The translations under genes and the position numbers were made by a program. Shown one piece after another: positions 37,900-50,472 of a stretch of 64,000 nucleotides of DNA (positions are counted from its first letter, which is position 1; each line of letters starts with the position of its first letter). The notes beneath the pieces were generated by a model. The model did not search any database and had not been told where the DNA came from. It worked only from the letters and a program-made list of their open reading frames with translations. The stretch is from Escherichia phage vB_EcoM_ECO78. The stretch is from sequence record PP526941.1. One strand, given 5' to 3'.

Positions 37900-38393
37900 A
37901 AAGTTTTAATAACCTCTATAATATCGTCTTGAGAAAGACCATTAATTAAAATATGATGTTCAGCAGGAGATTTAGAAATTTTAAAGCATGCCTCAACATC
38001 TTCTGCCATATCCGATGCACTACGATTTGGATTACTAATTCCAAGACGATGTTTTCCTGTCAAAGGATTAACGATGATATAGCATTTGCAGCTATTGATA
38101 TGAACATTGGGTTGAGTCTGATTAATGAATACTTCGCACTCATACTTAGCGAGTTGATTTTCTAAAAAGACTTTCATCTCCTCAACCGCATCAGGAAGCA
38201 TATCACGGGCTTGCTCAAGACGACGATTTCGATATTCTTTAATGGTCGTTTTCCGCTTAACTTGCTTAGCTAAATCTTTCTTAAGATCGGTGATATATCC
38301 AACTCGACGATTTCCTTTGAATACAGAAATCCCATCTGTAGTATCACCGTATGCTTCAACGACCATTTCAGTAGTAATAAGCTGCAAATCCAT
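37890..38393 (-). CDS. alc: Alc (host transcription allele-specific terminator)
   Basis: 167 aa from the second ATG (the ORF track used the first); synteny between pseT.3 and rnlA; early promoter/leader cassette upstream. Confidence 0.8.
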   Translation of the reverse strand: MDLQLITTEMVVEAYGDTTDGISVFKGNRRVGYITDLKKDLAKQVKRKTTIKEYRNRRLEQARDMLPDAVEEMKVFLENQLAKYECEVFINQTQPNVHINSCKCYIIVNPLTGKHRLGISNPNRSASDMAEDVEACFKISKSPAEHHILINGLSQDDIIEVIKTLCM

Positions 38394-38424
38394 CATAAAG
38401 TCCTCATGTTATGTCAGTAAGACT

Positions 38425-38454
38425 ACTATAACACAACACGATGGACTTGTAAAC
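38425..38454 (-). promoter_or_regulatory. T4 early-type promoter (copy 2 of the duplicated promoter/leader cassette)
   Basis: Minus strand GTTTACA, spacer, TATAGT, leader with GAGGA SD to the alc ATG; 53 of 54 nt identical to 23555-23607. Confidence 0.55.
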
Positions 38455-38457
38455 AGC

Positions 38458-40045
<1,588 letters not shown>

Positions 40046-40053
40046 AATAAAAT

Positions 40054-40067
40054 GGGCCTTGCGGCCC
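40054..40067 (-). promoter_or_regulatory. stable hairpin (GGGCC-GCAA-GGCCC) between the AAGGAG SD and the denA AUG; also a possible nrdB terminator
   Basis: Minus strand reads UAAGGAG-U-GGGCCGCAAGGCCC-AUUUUAUU-AUG; the hairpin would shorten the SD-AUG spacing from 23 to about 9 nt. Confidence 0.45.
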
Positions 40068-40072
40068 ACTCC

Positions 40073-41251
40073 TTAAAAGTATTTTTTAAAACTCATCATA
40101 ACTTTATCATCAACATCATTATCAATCTGTGCAACAAGGTAAGATGACAGTTCTACTTCTTGTGGCGCGGATTGAACATTATCAGAATTAAGATATTCAC
40201 GAATCCAAGGATATGGATGTTTAACCGGAGCATCGGTAATTGGGCATGGAAGACCACACTGTTTCATACGAGATACAGTTAAGTAATCAATAAAGCTCCA
40301 CATGCTATTTGTATTTAATCCAGGAACATCGCCATCTTTAAATAAATGAACTGCCCAATCTTTTTCTTGACGGTTAACTTCCATGAAAATATCAACTGCT
40401 TCTTGTTCACACTCTTGGGCAATTTTAACCCATTCATCGCCATCAGTGCCAAGTTGAAGTTGACGAATAATATATTGGGTGCCCTTAAGGTGTAGTTGTT
40501 CATCGCGAGCAATGAACTTCATAATCTTGGCATTACCTTCCATGATTTCCATATTCTTGTGGAAGTTAAAGGTGCATGCGAAAGATACATAAAAACGAAT
40601 AGCTTCTAAGGCATTAATAACGTGCAAACAGAGGTAAAGAGATTTCATTAGCTCACGCTTCCAATATGTCTCATGCTCAATAGCATCTTCAATAATGTCT
40701 TCGTCTGCATTAATTTCTTTTTGGTATTCGATATCAGCTTTAGCGTTTTCCCAATAACGAGTTTTAATCAGAACATCATCATAATAACGTCCAATGGATT
40801 CAGCACGTTTCATAATAGCTTCATCTAATACAATTTCATCAAATACCTTCGATGGATCAGTATAAAGATTTCGCATGATATGAGTATATGAACGACTGTG
40901 AATAGTTTCACTAAAAGTCCATGTAGCAACCCATGTATCAAGACTTGGGTCTGAAATTAATGACATAAGTACGGCAGACGGCGCACGACCCTGAATGCTA
41001 TCCAAAAGTGATTGATACTTCAGGTTGTTAGTAAAAATATTTTGCTGGTACTGAGGAAGCTTATTAAACTGTGCAGCATCCATCATCAAGTTTACTTCTT
41101 CAGGACGCCAGAAAAATGACAATTGCTTTTCGGTTAAATCTTCAAAAACTTTATGGCGTTGAATATCATAACGCGCAATACCAAGACCTGAACCGAAGAA
41201 CATAGGTTCTTTTAAAACATCAACTGGATTTGTATTAAAAACTGTGCTCAT
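40073..41251 (-). CDS. nrdB: ribonucleotide reductase small subunit NrdB, uninterrupted
   Basis: 392 aa contiguous ORF; di-iron/tyrosyl-radical RNR beta family; synteny downstream of nrdA; no intron-sized interruption. Confidence 0.92.
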   Translation of the reverse strand: MSTVFNTNPVDVLKEPMFFGSGLGIARYDIQRHKVFEDLTEKQLSFFWRPEEVNLMMDAAQFNKLPQYQQNIFTNNLKYQSLLDSIQGRAPSAVLMSLISDPSLDTWVATWTFSETIHSRSYTHIMRNLYTDPSKVFDEIVLDEAIMKRAESIGRYYDDVLIKTRYWENAKADIEYQKEINADEDIIEDAIEHETYWKRELMKSLYLCLHVINALEAIRFYVSFACTFNFHKNMEIMEGNAKIMKFIARDEQLHLKGTQYIIRQLQLGTDGDEWVKIAQECEQEAVDIFMEVNRQEKDWAVHLFKDGDVPGLNTNSMWSFIDYLTVSRMKQCGLPCPITDAPVKHPYPWIREYLNSDNVQSAPQEVELSSYLVAQIDNDVDDKVMMSFKKYF

Positions 41252-41302
41252 AAATTTTCCGCTTAGTTAATAGATAGTGACTCGTCCATGAGTCAAATTA
41301 TA

Positions 41303-43567
41303 TCATAATTTACAGGATGAACAATCTTCAGCTTTTGGAGTTTCTATTTCATAATCATCAGTACCAGAACCGTCACGGGTATTATGATAATAGAAATTTT
41401 TTCCGCCAAAATACCAAAAATACAAAAGGTCATCAATCATTATTGACATTGGAACCTTTCCTTTTGGAAAAATCTGCGGGTCATAATATGTATTTGCTGA
41501 AGCTGATTGACATACCCATTTCAGCATAATAGCTACCTGTGTAAGATAAGGTTTATTGCCTTTCTTAGCTAATTTCCACGTATAATCATAGAGGTCTATG
41601 TTATGTTCAATATTGGGCACGACTTGATTAAAGGAGCCCTCTTTTGATTCTTTAACAGAGACTGGTCCACGTGGAGGCTCGATACCGTTTGTACTGTTAG
41701 AAACTTGGGAAGATGACTCACATGGCATAAGTGCTGATAATGTGCTATTACGGATGCCAAAGAGCTTAAGGTCTTCCCGCAGCGACGACCAGTCACAAAC
41801 GTATTTTGGAGCTGCGATTTGGTCAATCTTTTTATTGTACCAGTCGATAGGTAATTCGCCTCGAGACCAACGAGTGTCTGAATAATATTCGCAAGGTCCT
41901 TTTTCTTTGGCGAGCTTAATGGATGCTTTAATGAGTCCATACTGTAATCTCTCAAATAGTTCATGTGTTAAATCGTTAGCATCTTCATAAGAAGCAAAGT
42001 TACTTGCCAGCCAAGCTGCATAGTTAGTAACACCTACACCGAGGTTACGACGCTTTTTAGCTTTTTCTGCTTCAGGAACTGGATATCCTTGGTAATCCAA
42101 AAGATTATCAAGAGCACGAACTTGAACTTCTGCCAATTCATTAATTTTATCTTGGTCTTGCCAATCGAAGTTATCCAACACAAACGCAGATAACGTACAC
42201 AATCCAATTTCGGCATCAGGGCTATTCACATCATTTGTTGGAATAGCAATTTCACAGCACAAGTTACTCTGACGAATAGGTGCCTTTTCACGAATAAACG
42301 GAGTGTAGTTATTCGTATTATCAATGAACTGTACATAAATCCTTGCTGTTCCTGAACGTTCAGTCATGAGCAATTCAAACAGTTCACGGGCTTTAATACG
42401 CTTTTTACGAATATTAGGGTCTTTTTCTGCTGCTTCGTATAATTCGCGGAAACGGTCTTGGTCTTTAAAATAAGAATAATAAAGCTCGCCACCCATTTCA
42501 TGCGGACTGAACAAAGTAATGTAATCGTTCTTTCCAAAACGTTCCATCATCAAATCATTCAGCTGAACACCATAATCCATATGACGAATGCGGTTTTCTT
42601 CTACGCCTTTGTTATTTTTCAAAACGAGAAGATTTTCAACTTCCAAATGCCAAATAGGATAATAAGCAGTAGCAGCGCCGCCACGAATTCCACCCTGTGA
42701 ACATGATTTAACTGCGGTCTGAAAATGTTTCCAAAAAGGAATAACACCAGTATGGCGTACTTCACCCATGCCAATCTTAGAACCTTCGGCACGAATCATA
42801 CCAACGTTAATACCAATTCCAGCACGTTTGGAGATATATTCAACAATCGAAGCGGAAGCCTTATTGATAGACTTCAATGAATCACCTGCCTCAATAACAA
42901 CGCATGAACTAAACTGCCGAGTTGGAGTACGACAACCAGCCATAATAGGAGTTGGCAATGAAATCTGTCGAGTAGATACCGCTTCATAAAAACGGATAAC
43001 ATGTTTTAATCTATCAACAGGTTCATCTTGATGCAATGCCATTCCAATAGCCATAAATGCAAACTGCGGAGTTTCATAAATTTGACCAGTGGTTTTATCT
43101 TTAACTAAATATTTTTCTTTTAATTGCATCGCCCCGGAATAAGTAAATTCCATATCCCGCTCGTGCTTAATTTTTGATTCTAAAAATGTAATTTCTTCTG
43201 CTGAATATTTTGACAATAATTCAGGGTCATATTTACCTTCATTTACACAATAAGAAATATGGTCAATAAATGAACGTGGTTCATACTGCCCGTAAACATG
43301 TTTACGAAGAGCAAACATTAAACAGCGTGCAGCTACATATTGATAATCAGGTTCTTCAACCGAAATAGAATTCGCAGCGGCCTTAATGACAATAGTCTGA
43401 ATATCATCAGTTGTCATTCCATCACGGAGATAAGATTTAATGTTTTCATATAATTCATAAGGATCTACTGATGTTCCCTCAGCTGCCCAAGATAAAACTT
43501 TAATAATTTTTTGTGGGTCAAAGCTCTGAGAAACACCACTACTTTTGATAACATTAATTAATTGCAT
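41303..43567 (-). CDS. nrdA: ribonucleotide reductase large subunit NrdA
   Basis: 754 aa; N-terminal ATP-cone; class I RNR alpha. Confidence 0.95.
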   Translation of the reverse strand: MQLINVIKSSGVSQSFDPQKIIKVLSWAAEGTSVDPYELYENIKSYLRDGMTTDDIQTIVIKAAANSISVEEPDYQYVAARCLMFALRKHVYGQYEPRSFIDHISYCVNEGKYDPELLSKYSAEEITFLESKIKHERDMEFTYSGAMQLKEKYLVKDKTTGQIYETPQFAFMAIGMALHQDEPVDRLKHVIRFYEAVSTRQISLPTPIMAGCRTPTRQFSSCVVIEAGDSLKSINKASASIVEYISKRAGIGINVGMIRAEGSKIGMGEVRHTGVIPFWKHFQTAVKSCSQGGIRGGAATAYYPIWHLEVENLLVLKNNKGVEENRIRHMDYGVQLNDLMMERFGKNDYITLFSPHEMGGELYYSYFKDQDRFRELYEAAEKDPNIRKKRIKARELFELLMTERSGTARIYVQFIDNTNNYTPFIREKAPIRQSNLCCEIAIPTNDVNSPDAEIGLCTLSAFVLDNFDWQDQDKINELAEVQVRALDNLLDYQGYPVPEAEKAKKRRNLGVGVTNYAAWLASNFASYEDANDLTHELFERLQYGLIKASIKLAKEKGPCEYYSDTRWSRGELPIDWYNKKIDQIAAPKYVCDWSSLREDLKLFGIRNSTLSALMPCESSSQVSNSTNGIEPPRGPVSVKESKEGSFNQVVPNIEHNIDLYDYTWKLAKKGNKPYLTQVAIMLKWVCQSASANTYYDPQIFPKGKVPMSIMIDDLLYFWYFGGKNFYYHNTRDGSGTDDYEIETPKAEDCSSCKL

Positions 43568-43884
43568 AAGTCCTCAACTTGAAAATCGTCTTTAAACAAT
43601 CGGTTAACTATATGAGCTATTATATCACCATGACACGGCTTTGGTTTACATGTGCATCCTAGCCTCATTCCACGTAAAGGCTCTAAATGTGCTTTAGTTA
43701 TTTCTCCGGATTTAATTCGACGTATAAAATCTTTTTTGAATAATTCAATGGCAGCCTCCCGGCTGCCAGCATCTTTACCGACGTAATTTCCCCAAAATGT
43801 ACCACGGTGAATATTAACATCAAAGTCGGATTTGTATTTATTCACTACCCGGCATAGACGGCCCGGTTGGTAATAATTCTTCAT
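43558..43884 (-). CDS. hypothetical Cys/His-motif protein (position of T4 nrdA.1)
   Basis: 108 aa; C-terminal [11 protein letters not shown] motif; overlaps the nrdA start by 10 nt. Confidence 0.5.
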
Positions 43885-44101
43885 ATTGTTTTTCCGTTAA
43901 AACAGTAATATCGTAGTAACAGTCAGAAGAAGTTTTAACTGTAGAAATTTTATTATCAAAATACTCACGAGTCATTTTATGAGTATAATACTTTTTACCA
44001 TAAATGATAATAGGTTGTTCTGGTCCTGGAACTTCTAACTCACTTGGGTTAGGAAGTGTAAAAAGAACAACGCCAGAAATATCTTTAAATCGTAAAATCA
44101 T
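43838..44101 (-). CDS. hypothetical protein (position of T4 nrdA.2)
   Basis: 87-aa ORF, ATGA-coupled to td. Confidence 0.45.
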
Positions 44102-44958
44102 ATTGCCATTTTCCCTTTAATTGCTGGATGCGATTCATAATTTTCAAGGATAAAATCTTTCGGTTTCATGTATTCAGTTAACCAGTAAAGCTGTGTTTCG
44201 GTGTCACAATTTCCAAACTCTATAGGCCAATCAATTTTAAGTTCACATAGTTCTTTAGGCTCACGACGTAAAATTTCTTTACATTGCTCAGTATGATTCA
44301 TATAGATGTGAGTATTACCACCAGAAAATATCAAATCTCCTGGGATAAGATTACACATCTTAGCCACAATATGCGTCAAGGCAGCGTACGAGGCAATATT
44401 GAATGGCAAGCCCAAGAAAACATCTACACTTCTTTGGTACCATTGTAAATCAAGATAACCATTACGCACATTAAACTGATAGAACATATGACAGGGCGGT
44501 AATGCCATTTGATTGATTTCAGCTGGATTCCATGCTGAAACGATTTGACGTCGATCAGTTGGTAATTTTTTAATACGATCAATAGTTTCAACTAATTGAT
44601 CCACACCACCGAAATCACGCCATTGTTTACCGTATATAGGACCAAGTTCACCACTATGATATCCTAGGTCTTTAGCCTGGTTTTCATAGTTATCGTCCCA
44701 AATAGTTTTACCTTGAATAAGACTACCATGAGTGCGAAGACGTAAATCATTAACATTGGTAGAACCGGAAATAAACCATAGAAGCTCAGCAATGCATGCA
44801 TTCCAGGCGAGCTTCTTAGTCGTTACTGCAGGAAAACCTTTAGTTAAATCCCAGCGTAATTTAGTACCGAACAAAGCAATTGTTCCTGTGCCCGTTCGGT
44901 CATCGGTTTCATAGCCGTTTTCAAGAATGTCTTTAATTAAATCTTGGTATTGTTTCAT
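44098..44958 (-). CDS. td: thymidylate synthase, uninterrupted
   Basis: 286 aa contiguous ORF; classical ThyA active-site region ([15 protein letters not shown]). Confidence 0.95.
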
Positions 44959-45002
44959 TTAGCACCTTATATAAATTATAATACATTTTATGAAGCTAAT
45001 AA

Positions 45003-45362
45003 TCAATACGGTTTAGCATCAAATTTTCTTTCAATTTCAGGCGTAAAATACAATTCTTTACCACGCTTGGAAAAGCGACCAATAATATGATAATTATTCT
45101 CATCAAACGTGATATTGCCGATATCCATAGCTTTCAACCAAATATCGATATTTCTGTCAAGCTTTATATCAAAATTCCAATATGGAGAACTATTACCAAA
45201 AATACTACAAGCGGATTCAGTGAAACAACTGCTATAAATCTTGTCTTTAGGAACTACTAATTGATAGACACCTTTAATAAACTGAGGACCCTGCCATTTT
45301 GGTTGTTTCGCGTCTTTTTCTAATAGAATAGGGTAATAATTAAAATTCATATTTTCCGCCAC
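45003..45362 (-). CDS. hypothetical protein inserted between frd and td
   Basis: 119-aa ORF with ATG start; no motif recognised. Confidence 0.55.
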   Translation of the reverse strand: MAENMNFNYYPILLEKDAKQPKWQGPQFIKGVYQLVVPKDKIYSSCFTESACSIFGNSSPYWNFDIKLDRNIDIWLKAMDIGNITFDENNYHIIGRFSKRGKELYFTPEIERKFDAKPY

Positions 45363-45370
45363 GTGTTATT

Positions 45371-46197
<827 letters not shown>

Positions 46198-46207
46198 ATT
46201 ATTTTCC

Positions 46208-46450
46208 TTAAACAGACTTTTTCACAATTTTCCAATCAACTTTAAACTGCTCGACGTCAGAATGGTAAATCCAGAATCCTGCGCTTTCTCCGTCTTCATA
46301 AAGAGGACATCCATCGCATTCATCTTCCCACCCCATATCGCGTAAAAGATGTTCAGCTTTTTCAACAAGTTCAGAATCTTTACCAATGATATTAAAATAC
46401 CATTTACCTCTAACTTCTGAATCTTTGATGCTCTGACGCTGTAATCTCAT
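46208..46450 (-). CDS. hypothetical protein (frd.x position)
   Basis: 80-aa ORF with GGAG SD, downstream of an early-type promoter. Confidence 0.5.
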   Translation of the reverse strand: MRLQRQSIKDSEVRGKWYFNIIGKDSELVEKAEHLLRDMGWEDECDGCPLYEDGESAGFWIYHSDVEQFKVDWKIVKKSV

Positions 46451-46475
46451 TTTATTCTCCTTAGTTGATAGGGTA

Positions 46476-46505
46476 ATAGTATCACACTACTACCCTTCTG
46501 TAAAC
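46476..46505 (-). promoter_or_regulatory. candidate T4 early-type promoter
   Basis: Minus strand GTTTAC, about 18-nt spacer, TACTAT. Confidence 0.4.
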
Positions 46506-46885
46506 TACTTTTTGAAAGTTTTTCGCAAAAGTTCAATGATTTCGTCGACGTTATTTTCGTCTACAATGCAGTGAATTTTTGTTACGCCAGAAACCTTGTC
46601 TTCGATTTCATCTTCTTCAGAAGTCGGTTCTTTATATTCACGAAAACAATGAAATTCATCTTCACAAATTTCTAAAAGTCTATCTTTGAGGTAAAAATGC
46701 TTTCCATTTGCGCATTCAATGTGTTTTACTGCTTTATATCCATTAGCGACGGAAACTTCTTTAACTTCAAACCATCCGCCATTATCTCGAATGGCTTTAA
46801 CTATTGATGAATTAGAACGTGGGCTATAATTAATAAATGTATCAATAAGTCTTGGAACAAGTTCATACTTTTTACCGGTATACAT
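46505..46885 (-). CDS. hypothetical protein (frd.x position)
   Basis: 126-aa ORF. Confidence 0.5.
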   Translation of the reverse strand: MYTGKKYELVPRLIDTFINYSPRSNSSIVKAIRDNGGWFEVKEVSVANGYKAVKHIECANGKHFYLKDRLLEICEDEFHCFREYKEPTSEEDEIEDKVSGVTKIHCIVDENNVDEIIELLRKTFKK

Positions 46886-46929
46886 TACGTTTTCCTCATT
46901 TTAATAGGGGCTTGATAGCCCCTTGATAA

Positions 46930-47157
46930 TTACTGTTCAATAAATCCTGTGTAAAATTCTACATCTTCAGCATCCATACCGTCGCAGTATTCATTAACCA
47001 TAAACTGTTTAAGACGATCTAAAGGACCTTCAATAACAACTGAAACATTACAATTAGGATCATTTAGTGCGCTTATGATACTAAGTTCAGGATAACGATT
47101 ACGAATAATTTCTTCAATATATTCAAAATCAACAACATCAATATCAATTTTAGCCAT
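46930..47157 (-). CDS. hypothetical acidic protein
   Basis: 75-aa ORF with AAGAGGAAAA SD. Confidence 0.5.
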
Positions 47158-47200
47158 ATTATTTTCCTCTTTAATTATCAGCAGTATTGCCGATAGTTGT

Positions 47201-47230
47201 ATAGTACCACAGTATGCTTTGGTTGTAAAC
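47201..47230 (-). promoter_or_regulatory. candidate T4 early-type promoter
   Basis: Minus strand GTTTACA, spacer, TACTAT; located just past the gene 32 terminator. Confidence 0.4.
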
Positions 47231-47261
47231 CGTTTTGTGAAAAATTTTTAAAATAAAAAAA

Positions 47262-47280
47262 GGGGACCTCTAGGGTCCCC
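47262..47280 (-). terminator. rho-independent terminator of gene 32
   Basis: GGGGACC-CUAGA-GGUCCCC followed on the minus strand by UUUUUUUAUUUU. Confidence 0.7.
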
Positions 47281-47302
47281 AATTAATTAGTAATATAATC
47301 TA

Positions 47303-48211
47303 TTAAAGGTCATTCAAAAGGTCATCCAGGTCCGTGTCATCAGCACTAGATGAACTGCCAGAGCTTGAGCTCATAAAATCATCTTCAGTTTTTGTATTGA
47401 AGTCATCAACATTGAATGCATCCAAATCATCAGCAACTTTATCAGCTTTCTTAGCAGCAGTTGCTGCGGCCCCGCCCATCACAGCAGTTCCCATGACTTG
47501 ACCGAATTTAGTGCTCAGTTCTTCAAACGATTTGAATTTATCTTTAGAAGTCATTTCAGAAAGGTCAACCATTTGTTCGAACAGTTCTTTCTGGAAAGAT
47601 TCATCGTCAATGTTTGGAATCGCAGATTGATTCAGAAATTTAGATTCATCGTAGTTACTAAATCCAGAAACTTGTTTAACTTTCAGTACAAAGTTAGCAC
47701 CTTCCCACGGACAAGTTACATCAACCGGAGTTTCACCCATTTCAACATCAACTGCAATCATTGCATTGATTTTATCCCAAATTTTCTTACCGAAACGGTA
47801 TTTAAATACTTTACCTTCATTTTCTGGAGCAGCTGGGTCTTTTACAACAAGAATGTTAGCCCAGTAAGAAGTTTTACGTTTAACAAGACTGTACTCTTTA
47901 TTGTCAGTGTTGTACAGATCATTTTTACTGATGTATTGACATACTGGGCAAGAATCGTAATCACCGTGGGTAGATGAACAGTTTTCAATATACCATTTAC
48001 CATTTTTCTTGAAACCGTGATTTACAAGAATTGCGAATGGTGCTTGTTCATCATTTTTAGACGGAAGAAAACGAATTACTGCTTGACCGTTACCCGCATT
48101 GTCGAGTTTCAGTTTCCACTCGCCTTTATCTTCAGAAGAAAAACCACCTTTATTTCCAGCCAGTTTAGCCATTTGTGCAGCGAGTTCAGCAGTAGATTTA
48201 CGTTTAAACAT
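47303..48211 (-). CDS. 32: single-stranded DNA-binding protein gp32
   Basis: 302 aa; sequence recognised as gp32 (zinc-binding region [15 protein letters not shown], acidic Ser/Asp-rich C-terminus). Confidence 0.96.
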
Positions 48212-48271
48212 TTTTATTTCCTTTTTAATTTAATTAACAGTTGGTGCTATGACGATGTATGACCTCATAGC
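48212..48271 (-). promoter_or_regulatory. gene 32 translational operator: A/U-rich unstructured leader plus 5' pseudoknot (gp32 autoregulation site)
   Basis: mRNA sense reads ...GCUAUGAGGUCAUACAUCGUCAUAGCACCAACUGUUAAUUAAAUUAAAAAGGAAAUAAAAAUG, matching the T4 operator as I recall it. Confidence 0.6.
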
Positions 48272-48294
48272 TGGTCAGTGAGATAATTATAATC

Positions 48295-48302
48295 TATTTA
48301 TA
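48295..48302 (-). promoter_or_regulatory. T4-type late promoter (TATAAATA on minus strand) upstream of gene 32
   Basis: Plus-strand TATTTATA about 85 nt upstream of the gene 32 ATG. Confidence 0.4.
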
Positions 48303-48310
48303 ATAAGCAA

Positions 48311-48964
48311 TTAATACTTACAAGATTTCACAGTTTCAATGAAAACATTTTTAGCTTTCTGTGAATCAATATTTAAAATTTTTCTATAAGCCTTTAACTT
48401 TATAGAATAATTATTCCAGACTAAATTATCAGTCTGTTCATCATGTTTATCAATTATATTTAAAAATGAATCAAGCAAGATAAACGTCTCAAACGAAATT
48501 ATGTTCGATTGCAGAAGTTTAAAAATATAACTTGACTGAACTTTTGGATTATATTCAAAGATTTCTTTAAAAGCAGAAACTTCAACTTTTTTACTAAAAT
48601 AATAAATGTTGCGAATATCTTCTTCAAACTTAAATTTAATTTGCTTTAAGCGTCCGATATATTCACGATAAAACACAAGTGCATCAGCGTCAGAGATGTC
48701 ACCAATCCAAGCATCTTGGTTAGCAACCAAATTGCTTATAAAGATTAAAGCAAGTTCCTTTAATTTATATTTTTCTGATAACTTCTGGAAAAAATACTTA
48801 TCCCTTCGCTTTTGATAAGCGGCATCAGACACCCGCATGCACCAATTATACTTAATAACATCATACTTTCCATTCATATGTTGTTTTATCATTAAGTATA
48901 ATTTATAAACTGATTTACCATCAATGTATCTTTCACCACCAGCAGGCATGCGGAGTTTAATCAT
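48311..48964 (-). CDS. 59: helicase loader gp59
   Basis: 217 aa, the T4 gp59 length; synteny between 33 and 32. Confidence 0.82.
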   Translation of the reverse strand: MIKLRMPAGGERYIDGKSVYKLYLMIKQHMNGKYDVIKYNWCMRVSDAAYQKRRDKYFFQKLSEKYKLKELALIFISNLVANQDAWIGDISDADALVFYREYIGRLKQIKFKFEEDIRNIYYFSKKVEVSAFKEIFEYNPKVQSSYIFKLLQSNIISFETFILLDSFLNIIDKHDEQTDNLVWNNYSIKLKAYRKILNIDSQKAKNVFIETVKSCKY

Positions 48965-49299
48965 AGTAGAAAATCTAATGTATTAGTTTTTTCACAACGA
49001 ACAACAGAAGGACGTAAAAGATTTTCGTCAATAGCTTCTGACTGAATTTTTTCAATTATACCCGAAGGAATAAATTTAGCAAATTGAGTTTCAGGAATAG
49101 AGTTTTCTTCCAAGAATGCTGTCGTAGCTTCAAGATAACTCATTCCAAACTCTTCTACCATTTTTTCAATAATAAATCCATTTTCTTGACGATCAAGAAG
49201 CTTTGCTATTTCATCCTTTTCTTTCTTGATTGAAAGTTCTTTTTCTGAAAGACCGGTCTCATCGACCGGACGAATATCATTTAGAGAAAACTGTGTCAT
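48961..49299 (-). CDS. 33: late transcription co-activator gp33
   Basis: 112 aa from the ATG at 49299 (the ORF track start is 3 codons further upstream); synteny. Confidence 0.75.
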   Translation of the reverse strand: MTQFSLNDIRPVDETGLSEKELSIKKEKDEIAKLLDRQENGFIIEKMVEEFGMSYLEATTAFLEENSIPETQFAKFIPSGIIEKIQSEAIDENLLRPSVVRCEKTNTLDFLL

Positions 49300-49546
49300 A
49301 AAGTTCAACTACCTCTTCAGTTTCAGCTTCAAACACATCACGGTTATCTTTATGATACAAAGCTAACAGACGATTAAACATCTTACCATCAACGCCAAGT
49401 TCATCTTTGGCACGAATTCGAATATCTTTAATCAATTCATTATAACCAGAAATTTTCAGTTTATGATCAGATGCTTCTTTAATAAATTTAGCCAAGTCTT
49501 CGCCATGGATAGCTTCATCAAATTCAACCATTTCTTTTTTAGCCAT
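49277..49546 (-). CDS. dsbA: double-stranded DNA-binding protein DsbA
   Basis: 89 aa; synteny between rnh and 33; 3' end overlaps the gene 33 start. Confidence 0.75.
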   Translation of the reverse strand: MAKKEMVEFDEAIHGEDLAKFIKEASDHKLKISGYNELIKDIRIRAKDELGVDGKMFNRLLALYHKDNRDVFEAETEEVVELYDTVFSK

Positions 49547-49554
49547 TATTCACC

Positions 49555-50472
49555 TCAAAATTCATTAATGCTATTAGTTAATTTAGAAAGACCCGCTTTT
49601 ACAAAATATGAATAAATTTTGCCACGCGGTGGTAATTTATATGAATTATAGTAATTCACAATGTTTGAAGCAATATTATCAGGAATATAATCAAAATCAA
49701 TTAGAACTAAATTTTCTTTATAACGATTATATTCAGATTCTGTGAGAAGCACCTTAGCTTGCTCACGGTCATTAGCAATAGCTTCAACGATTGAAGTTTT
49801 CATTGAAGGAGTTCGTTCACCTTCAACTCTGGTAAACCAAAAGTCAGATCGTACTTTAACTGAAGCAACGTTATCCTTTTTGTCGCCTTTAAGGATTTTA
49901 GTCATACAGTCAATTTCAGCAGAACCGCTTTTAATTTTAACCCATTTCTTATGCATCGGTGACCATTGCTTAACATTTGGATATTTGTGAAGCTGTGTAA
50001 AGTCACCATCCGACGAAATGATTAAAATCTTATGTCCTTCTAAAGAGAACTTTTTAACAAGAACAGCAATGTGGTCATCTGCTTCATACTTATCAATATC
50101 CATAACAATGTATGGCATATAAGCTTTCAATTCATCTATAACTTTATGGCTGGATTCAAAATAACCTTCCCAGTCCCAAGTAGATTCTTCTCGTGCTTTT
50201 CCACGGTTTTTCTTATAATAATACGCAAAATCACGACGCCAATATCCAGATTTCGCGTTATCAATACACAACACGATTTTAGTGTATCCAAGCGTTTTTG
50301 CTTTTTTGACATTAAACTTAATTGAGTTCAATATCAAATGACGAACCATTGATAAATTAATTTTTTCTTTATCTGGGAAGTTTACTAAAGCAGTTGAAAG
50401 CGCAATTTGACTAAAGTCAATAAAGCAAATTCCCTCTTTGTAATCTTCATCCAGCATCATTTCTAAATCCAT
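49555..50472 (-). CDS. rnh: RNase H (5'-3' exonuclease/flap endonuclease)
   Basis: 305 aa from the ATG at 50472 with GAGG SD (the ORF track start is a TTG); FEN-family acidic clusters. Confidence 0.92.
   Translation of the reverse strand: MDLEMMLDEDYKEGICFIDFSQIALSTALVNFPDKEKINLSMVRHLILNSIKFNVKKAKTLGYTKIVLCIDNAKSGYWRRDFAYYYKKNRGKAREESTWDWEGYFESSHKVIDELKAYMPYIVMDIDKYEADDHIAVLVKKFSLEGHKILIISSDGDFTQLHKYPNVKQWSPMHKKWVKIKSGSAEIDCMTKILKGDKKDNVASVKVRSDFWFTRVEGERTPSMKTSIVEAIANDREQAKVLLTESEYNRYKENLVLIDFDYIPDNIASNIVNYYNSYKLPPRGKIYSYFVKAGLSKLTNSINEF

Follow-up and report, generated by a model that had tools for sequence, protein, structure and literature searches.

Introduction

In bacteriophage T4 the thymidylate synthase gene td is split by a group I intron that encodes the homing endonuclease I-TevI, and the homing of this intron by I-TevI, together with co-conversion of the flanking exons, is a textbook result. 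The td locus of Escherichia phage vB_EcoM_ECO78 (sequence record PP526941.1) raises the question of whether its gene is truly uninterrupted and, if so, whether it could act as a recipient for the intron. A first-pass annotation had read td as a contiguous 286-codon open reading frame (ORF), a natural intron-minus allele and a potential recipient for homing. In order to answer this question we analysed a 64,000-nucleotide stretch of this genome (hereafter the window) by comparison with T4 and with the phage records that match it. Positions marked minus and plus are counted from the intron insertion site into exon 1 and exon 2, respectively.

Results and discussion

The td gene is a single open reading frame

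The td gene of the window was found in the ORF list as one uninterrupted reading frame of 286 codons, with an ATG start, on the minus strand (Table 1). The Pfam profile PF00303 (Thymidylat_synt) matched residues 2–286 over its entire length (1–266 of 266, E 3.3e-96) with a score of 322 bits against a curated cut-off of 24.3, and the best solved structure was that of T4 thymidylate synthase, 1TIS, aligned 1–286 on 1–286 (E 1.2e-170). In ThyA-type thymidylate synthases PCH is the catalytic cysteine motif and QRS provides the substrate-phosphate Arg-Ser pair. Both motifs were identical to those of 1TIS in the residue-by-residue alignment, as was the stretch WYQRSVDVF. A 286-codon ORF with such Pfam and 1TIS scores is not a chance ORF, and the contiguity claimed in the first-pass annotation was borne out by the ORF list, the full-length PF00303 match and the end-to-end 1TIS alignment.

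Table 1 Features of the td locus in the window
Feature	Coordinates	Strand	Basis
td, thymidylate synthase	44098..44958	minus	ORF list; Pfam PF00303; 1TIS alignment; collinearity with spliced T4 td
nrdA.2 homologue (DUF5496), overlaps td stop codon	43838..44101	minus	Pfam; tblastn, 93% identity to T4 NrdA.2
115-aa ORF between frd and td	45003..45350	minus	ORF list; not part of td
frd, dihydrofolate reductase, upstream of td	45371..45952	minus	Pfam DHFR_1; tblastn, 98% amino acid identity to T4 Frd
Equivalent of T4 td intron insertion site	44409..44410	minus	T4 exon boundaries mapped onto the ORF
Predicted I-TevI cleavage motif CAAAG (T4: CAACG), -27..-23	44432..44436	minus	Homing-site alignment
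Predicted I-TevI homing site, ~38 bp, -27..+11	44399..44436	minus	Alignment; size from PMC2988022

Positions 136000–150000 of NC_000866 (L001) served as the T4 reference, in which td lies on the minus strand at L001:7236-9113 as a two-piece join enclosing I-TevI. The split described for T4 in the first-pass annotation was located after nt 549, where the 1017-nt intron begins; for mapping, exon 1 was taken to end TTCTTGGGT and exon 2 to begin CTACCG. Exon 1 (549 nt) and exon 2 (312 nt) aligned collinearly on the window ORF and abutted directly; the window has neither a counterpart of the 1017-nt intron nor the I-TevI that T4 carries, and the ORF is exactly as long as the spliced T4 gene (861 nt). 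The orthologous 286-aa enzymes share 242 of 286 residues (85%), and the only gaps between them were a compensating +1/-1 pair within a variable stretch at aa 241–265.

It is in this stretch that a degenerate intron remnant, a mini-intein or another insertion that preserves the frame might be hidden. Its core is hypervariable (td nt 721–780, 44179..44238, aa 241–260), with only 16 of 60 nucleotides identical to T4 and the +1/-1 codon indel pair. Against such an insertion, the length equals that of T4 Td (286 aa), the 1TIS alignment runs from end to end with posterior support throughout, the PF00303 profile is covered from 1 to 266 of 266 and no Rfam match was obtained; moreover, two allelic versions of the aa 241–265 segment exist, and many phages share that of the window. 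The 1TIS, PF00303 and T4 Td alignments refute the idea, which the first-pass annotation had named as what would overturn its reading, and we regard it as almost certainly wrong. The uninterrupted td of the window would be translated directly, from an unspliced mRNA.

The intron, I-TevI and neighbouring endonuclease genes are absent

A search of the whole 64-kb window with Rfam returned no family (tRNA, sRNA, intron or riboswitch) at gathering score. When the threshold was relaxed to E<=1 over 39500..46500, no group I intron was found, and the three matches obtained were at chance level and all to unrelated families. Neither tblastn of T4 I-TevI, a GIY-YIG endonuclease, against the whole window (E<=1e-3) nor blastn of the T4 td intron against it gave a match. 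The description of td as a natural intron-minus allele is thus upheld by the absence of a group I intron RNA, of T4 td-intron DNA and of an I-TevI homologue from the window.

Homologues of I-TevIII, mobE, segG and nrdB.1 were likewise sought in the window and none was found. The nrdB gene (40073..41251) is also uninterrupted, T4 exons 1 and 2 mapping to segments that abut at ~40566..40573; the gap between nrdB and nrdA is only 51 nt (41252..41302), with no mobE and no nrdB.1, and that between gp32 and gp59 is ~100 nt (48212..48313), with no segG. With nrdB unsplit and both gaps so short, all four endonuclease-related insertions that T4 carries in this 10-kb stretch (the td intron with I-TevI, the nrdB intron with I-TevIII, mobE with nrdB.1, and segG) are missing. 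Overall, we are highly confident that the window comes from a Tequatrovirus distinct from T4 and that its td is an ordinary functional intron-free gene whose I-TevI homing site appears to be intact.

The td allele belongs to a class distinct from that of T4

The 2.5-kb region around td (43500-46000) matched 703 phage records, of which 378 covered at least 80% of it. Among the matches listed, nearly all were Tequatrovirus from Escherichia, Shigella and Yersinia, the best being phage KMB22 at 98.0%, and none was identical. The window td itself was matched at >=95% by 105 records and at 80–90% (the T4/T2 class) by 524. Its DNA identity to T4 is ~83% in exon 1 and lower in exon 2 (exons ~77–83%), unlike the Frd, gp32 and gp59 proteins, which are 98–100% identical to those of T4. 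Since the neighbours are 98–100% identical at the protein level and td only ~83% at the DNA level, we assign the window td, on sequence grounds, to a distinct allele class, the 'U5/phiD1/KAW1E185 type' (window-type hereafter).

The intron-free phages KAW1E185, FL08 and phiD1 have td genes 98–99.4% identical to that of the window. As in the window, a contiguous 861-nt td CDS is present in T2, RB14, RB18, phiD1, KAW1E185 and slur02, and the gene order frd, 115-aa ORF, td, nrdA.2, nrdA.1, nrdA is shared between the window and intron-free T-even phages. In contrast, U5 (AY262155, a td-only record of 1,877 bases), G8, Lutter and Pu-Krd-SF5 have exons that are window-type at nearly all informative sites but carry the intron and a T4-type patch, both of which the window lacks. 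The td nt 721–780 segment exists as two allelic versions among Tequatroviruses, and AV121 has the T4-like version of aa 241–260 behind a window-type exon 1, which shows recombination within td. On a larger scale, identity between 38118..49768 and T4 (L001) is mosaic, with 97–99% in denA/nrdB exon 2 and in gene 59, ~85% in nrdB exon 1, 83% in td exon 1 and ~89% from frd.2 to gene 32; the boundaries fall close to the sites of T4 endonuclease genes.

The window also differs from T4 between frd and td. In T4 these two genes overlap (ATGA) and the 115-aa ORF is missing, whereas in the window they are separated by a 416-nt segment. At its two ends lies a 9-nt direct repeat, TAAATGAAA (45369..45377 and 44953..44961), an arrangement that suggests either a deletion in the T4 lineage or an insertion by microhomology. 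The 115-aa ORF is also found in T2, G8, AV121, Lutter and FriedrichMiescher, and one GenBank record names it 'putative homing endonuclease'. No Pfam domain was found in it. It falls in PHROG 1928, a family without assigned function, and its family is small, with 17 representatives among 1.8 billion proteins; no nuclease motif was found in the alignment. A PDB search with its confident AF2 model (pLDDT 91) gave nothing better than E 0.31, and the matches of the model in BFVD were to uncharacterised phage proteins only. In the light of the missing Pfam domain, nuclease motif and PDB match, we consider the name 'putative homing endonuclease' unsupported.

The predicted I-TevI homing site is conserved

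As a monomer, I-TevI occupies a 38-bp site whose 20-bp primary binding region has the insertion site at its centre; it cuts at 5'-CNNNG-3', 23 and 25 nt upstream, and generally tolerates base changes in the site (PMC2988022). In the window the equivalent insertion point lies between td nt 549 (44410, the C that ends the Gly183 codon GGC) and nt 550 (44409, the T that starts the Leu184 codon TTG), the codons of the same two residues as in T4. The alignment to T4 is ungapped from -45 to +30, the C at -27 and the G at -23 of CNNNG are kept, and the spacing from cut to insertion is unchanged at 23/25 nt. The search for the I-TevI site proposed in the first-pass annotation, like the alignment to the two T4 exons, therefore turned out in its favour, CAAAG being retained at the correct distance.

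Within the predicted homing site the window differs from T4 at -24, -22, -21, -20, -19, -1, +1, +3, +6 and +9, while -18..-2 is identical; across the primary binding region (-10..+10) 15 of 20 positions match, the exceptions being -1, +1, +3, +6 and +9. Outside the site, the stretch -40..+25 holds further differences at -37, -34, -28, +18, +21 and +24. All 16 differences in -40..+25 are synonymous, and the protein encoded across the homing site is the same as in T4. For comparison, the T2 site differs from that of T4 at seven positions (-22, -7, -6, -4, +3, +6 and +18), five of them within -10..+10. The homing site of phiD1 and KAW1E185 is identical to that of the window from -45 to +11; at +12 the window has a T, a private synonymous base, where both of these phages have C.

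Whether such a site would be cut depends on a few bases that have been studied in detail. C1 and G5 of CNNNG are critical and certain central triplets make poor substrates (PMC5009752), A/T-rich central triplets being preferred by I-TevI (PMC12663268, PMC12774661). The AAA triplet of the window is A/T-rich and hence falls in the preferred class. Two nucleotides beyond the G, at position 7 of the cleavage region, the window has an A; the preference at this position is given as T (PMC12774661) or as T/A (PMC12663268), and with A there the cleavage efficiency could be below that of T4-type sites. A text search of the literature turned up no relevant account of I-TevI acting on CAAAG. I-TevI would be expected to cut the window site efficiently.

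At -24..-19 (44428..44433), exactly at and next to the I-TevI cut, two codons of the YQRSVD motif have switched codon family: Arg from CGC to AGA and Ser from TCA to AGT. T2 and T4 use CGC/CGA and TCA at these codons, the window AGA and AGT; several substitutions are needed to pass from the one Ser codon to the other. No other feature of the site might hint at lower cleavage, and the switches may simply reflect how deeply the two td allele classes have diverged. They could also be taken to mean that selection against I-TevI has made the window-type allele a homing site that partly resists cleavage, the codon-family switches having been selected to lower cleavage and td being intron-free through poor invasion. 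If true, this would be a case of natural target-site escape inside an essential, protein-constrained motif. Five of the six bases at -24..-19 (-24 and -22..-19) differ from T4 with the protein unchanged, the change from TCA to AGT is not trivial drift, position 7 is not the reported preferred T (PMC12774661) and many CNNNG variants are poor substrates (PMC5009752). Set against this are the retention of the critical C-27 and G-23 and the membership of AAA in the preferred A/T-rich class (PMC5009752, PMC12663268). The phages in which window-type exons carry the intron bear on the same point, and with these taken into account, as described below, we judge resistance to be unlikely.

Window-type alleles carrying the intron bear co-conversion scars

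A chimeric query joining window exon 1 to the 5' end of the T4 intron matched, among the matches listed, the intron-bearing phages U5, G8, Manna, fPS-2, AV121, Lutter and others at 96–98.6% across the junction, with an exon 1 of window type. The 125 differences between the window and T4 in td nt 1–720 were taken as informative sites and scored in U5, G8, Lutter and AV121, each spliced computationally. U5 showed a T4-type patch from -28 to +3, and G8 and Lutter from -45 to +3/+6; AV121 was T4-type from -49 onward, including most of exon 2. In Pu-Krd-SF5 a T4-like tract extended ~250 nt upstream and covered only +1..+3 downstream. The patches thus start at or upstream of the I-TevI cut and, in four of the five phages (AV121 being the exception), stop 3–6 nt past the insertion. 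Away from the insertion site, the two informative sites nearest the start of td (-516 and -508) were also T4-type in U5, G8, Lutter and AV121, as were a few scattered sites elsewhere in exon 1, which were most numerous in Lutter.

These short T4-type patches are the co-conversion scar expected of homing. Their asymmetry, long in exon I and short in exon II, matches the explanation that I-TevI remains bound on the exon II side and leaves exon I open to degradation, giving biased tracts (PMC2988022). The tract boundaries differ between phages, which suggests several separate invasion events, and the window-type allele class has been invaded repeatedly in nature. The proposal that the window td is a potential recipient thereby gains substance from U5, G8, Lutter, AV121 and Pu-Krd-SF5, all of which combine window-type exons with a T4-type patch. 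The site of the recipients was most likely that of the window: U5, G8, Lutter and Pu-Krd-SF5 have retained the C at +12 that is also seen in the intron-free phages phiD1 and KAW1E185, and the sites of these two are identical to that of the window from -45 to +11. For the cleavage site as such, the probable match is drawn from these intron-free relatives, the recipients' own sequence having been overwritten.

These recombinants, at least five of them with differently bounded tracts that start at the cut, are also what makes a cleavage-resistant site unlikely. A chimeric query of the T4 intron 3' end and window exon 2 was covered by about 60 records, to be set against roughly 100 records with a window-type td (>=95%), so that occupancy is not clearly lower; record counts, which are not independent, give no clear occupancy deficit relative to T4-type alleles.

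Homing into the window-type allele would be expected to proceed as follows. When a cell is infected by an intron-bearing phage as well, I-TevI would bind at ~44399..44419 and cut at the CAAAG motif, 23/25 nt upstream of the insertion site. The break would be resected mainly into exon I, and donor-templated repair would copy the intron in, converting -25..-1 to donor sequence. This conversion would be silent because every difference between cut and insertion site is synonymous. At the 5' splice site of a group I intron, position -1 is the conserved U of a U.G pair. The window has C at -1, which would replace that U; conversion from C to T would restore it, and would follow automatically, as -1 is within the converted stretch that runs from the cut to the insertion point. 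The base at -1 was T in all five intron-bearing window-type alleles (U5, G8, Lutter, AV121 and Pu-Krd-SF5).

In the window itself, the informative sites between -49 and +9 are all window-type. With no T4-type patch, the allele is without trace of past intron occupancy. The intron-minus state could nevertheless be secondary, the intron having once been present and then precisely lost through recombination with an intron-free phage or via spliced RNA. Cycles of gain and loss are an accepted model for homing elements (PMC2988022, PMC5009752), T-even phages recombine frequently and the td gene is a mosaic when phages are compared. A loss of this kind would leave no trace if recombination had been with an identical intron-free allele. 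The site of the window, all window-type over -49..+9, is nevertheless that of phiD1 and KAW1E185 from -45 to +11, and lacks the patch seen in five of five intron-carrying window-type alleles, so that we consider a secondary loss very unlikely.

Intron-free td is the commoner state

In the phage collection, 447 of the 658 records matching the window td had the gene contiguous, that is, in one place with at least 80% covered. This count takes in no intron-split genes, because the 1017 nt of the intron exceed the joining distance of the search. The whole T4 td intron was present in 197 records, and the chimeric query of window exon 1 and the T4 intron 5' end was covered by 204, which have the intron at the equivalent site. 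With 447 of 658 contiguous against about 200 with the intron, about two thirds of the td-bearing records are intron-free and T4 represents the minority state, the counts not being independent in that many T4 laboratory strains and RefSeq/GenBank duplicates are among them. The first-pass annotation framed T4 as the norm, and in this respect it needs qualification: T4 is in the minority and intron-free td is the commoner form.

That the td intron occurs only sporadically in T-even phages is reported to have been described by Quirk et al. in 1989 and by Sandegren and Sjöberg in 2004, both of which are cited in PMC2988022 and PMC2993671. Among the T4-related genomes then sequenced, intron-encoded endonucleases were listed only for T4, T6, RB3 and LZ2, together with possible relics (PMC2993671, Table 5). 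The literature on T4 relatives is in agreement with our results, and the uninterrupted td of this phage is ordinary biology of a kind already described.

Conclusions

The distribution of the td intron, its homing and co-conversion being already known, the finding has little importance past correct annotation, for which td is to be entered as a single CDS. Beyond this, U5, G8, Lutter, AV121 and Pu-Krd-SF5 form a tidy natural series of co-conversion tracts for the window-type allele, and phage vB_EcoM_ECO78 would serve as a clean intron-free, endonuclease-poor recipient for homing crosses.
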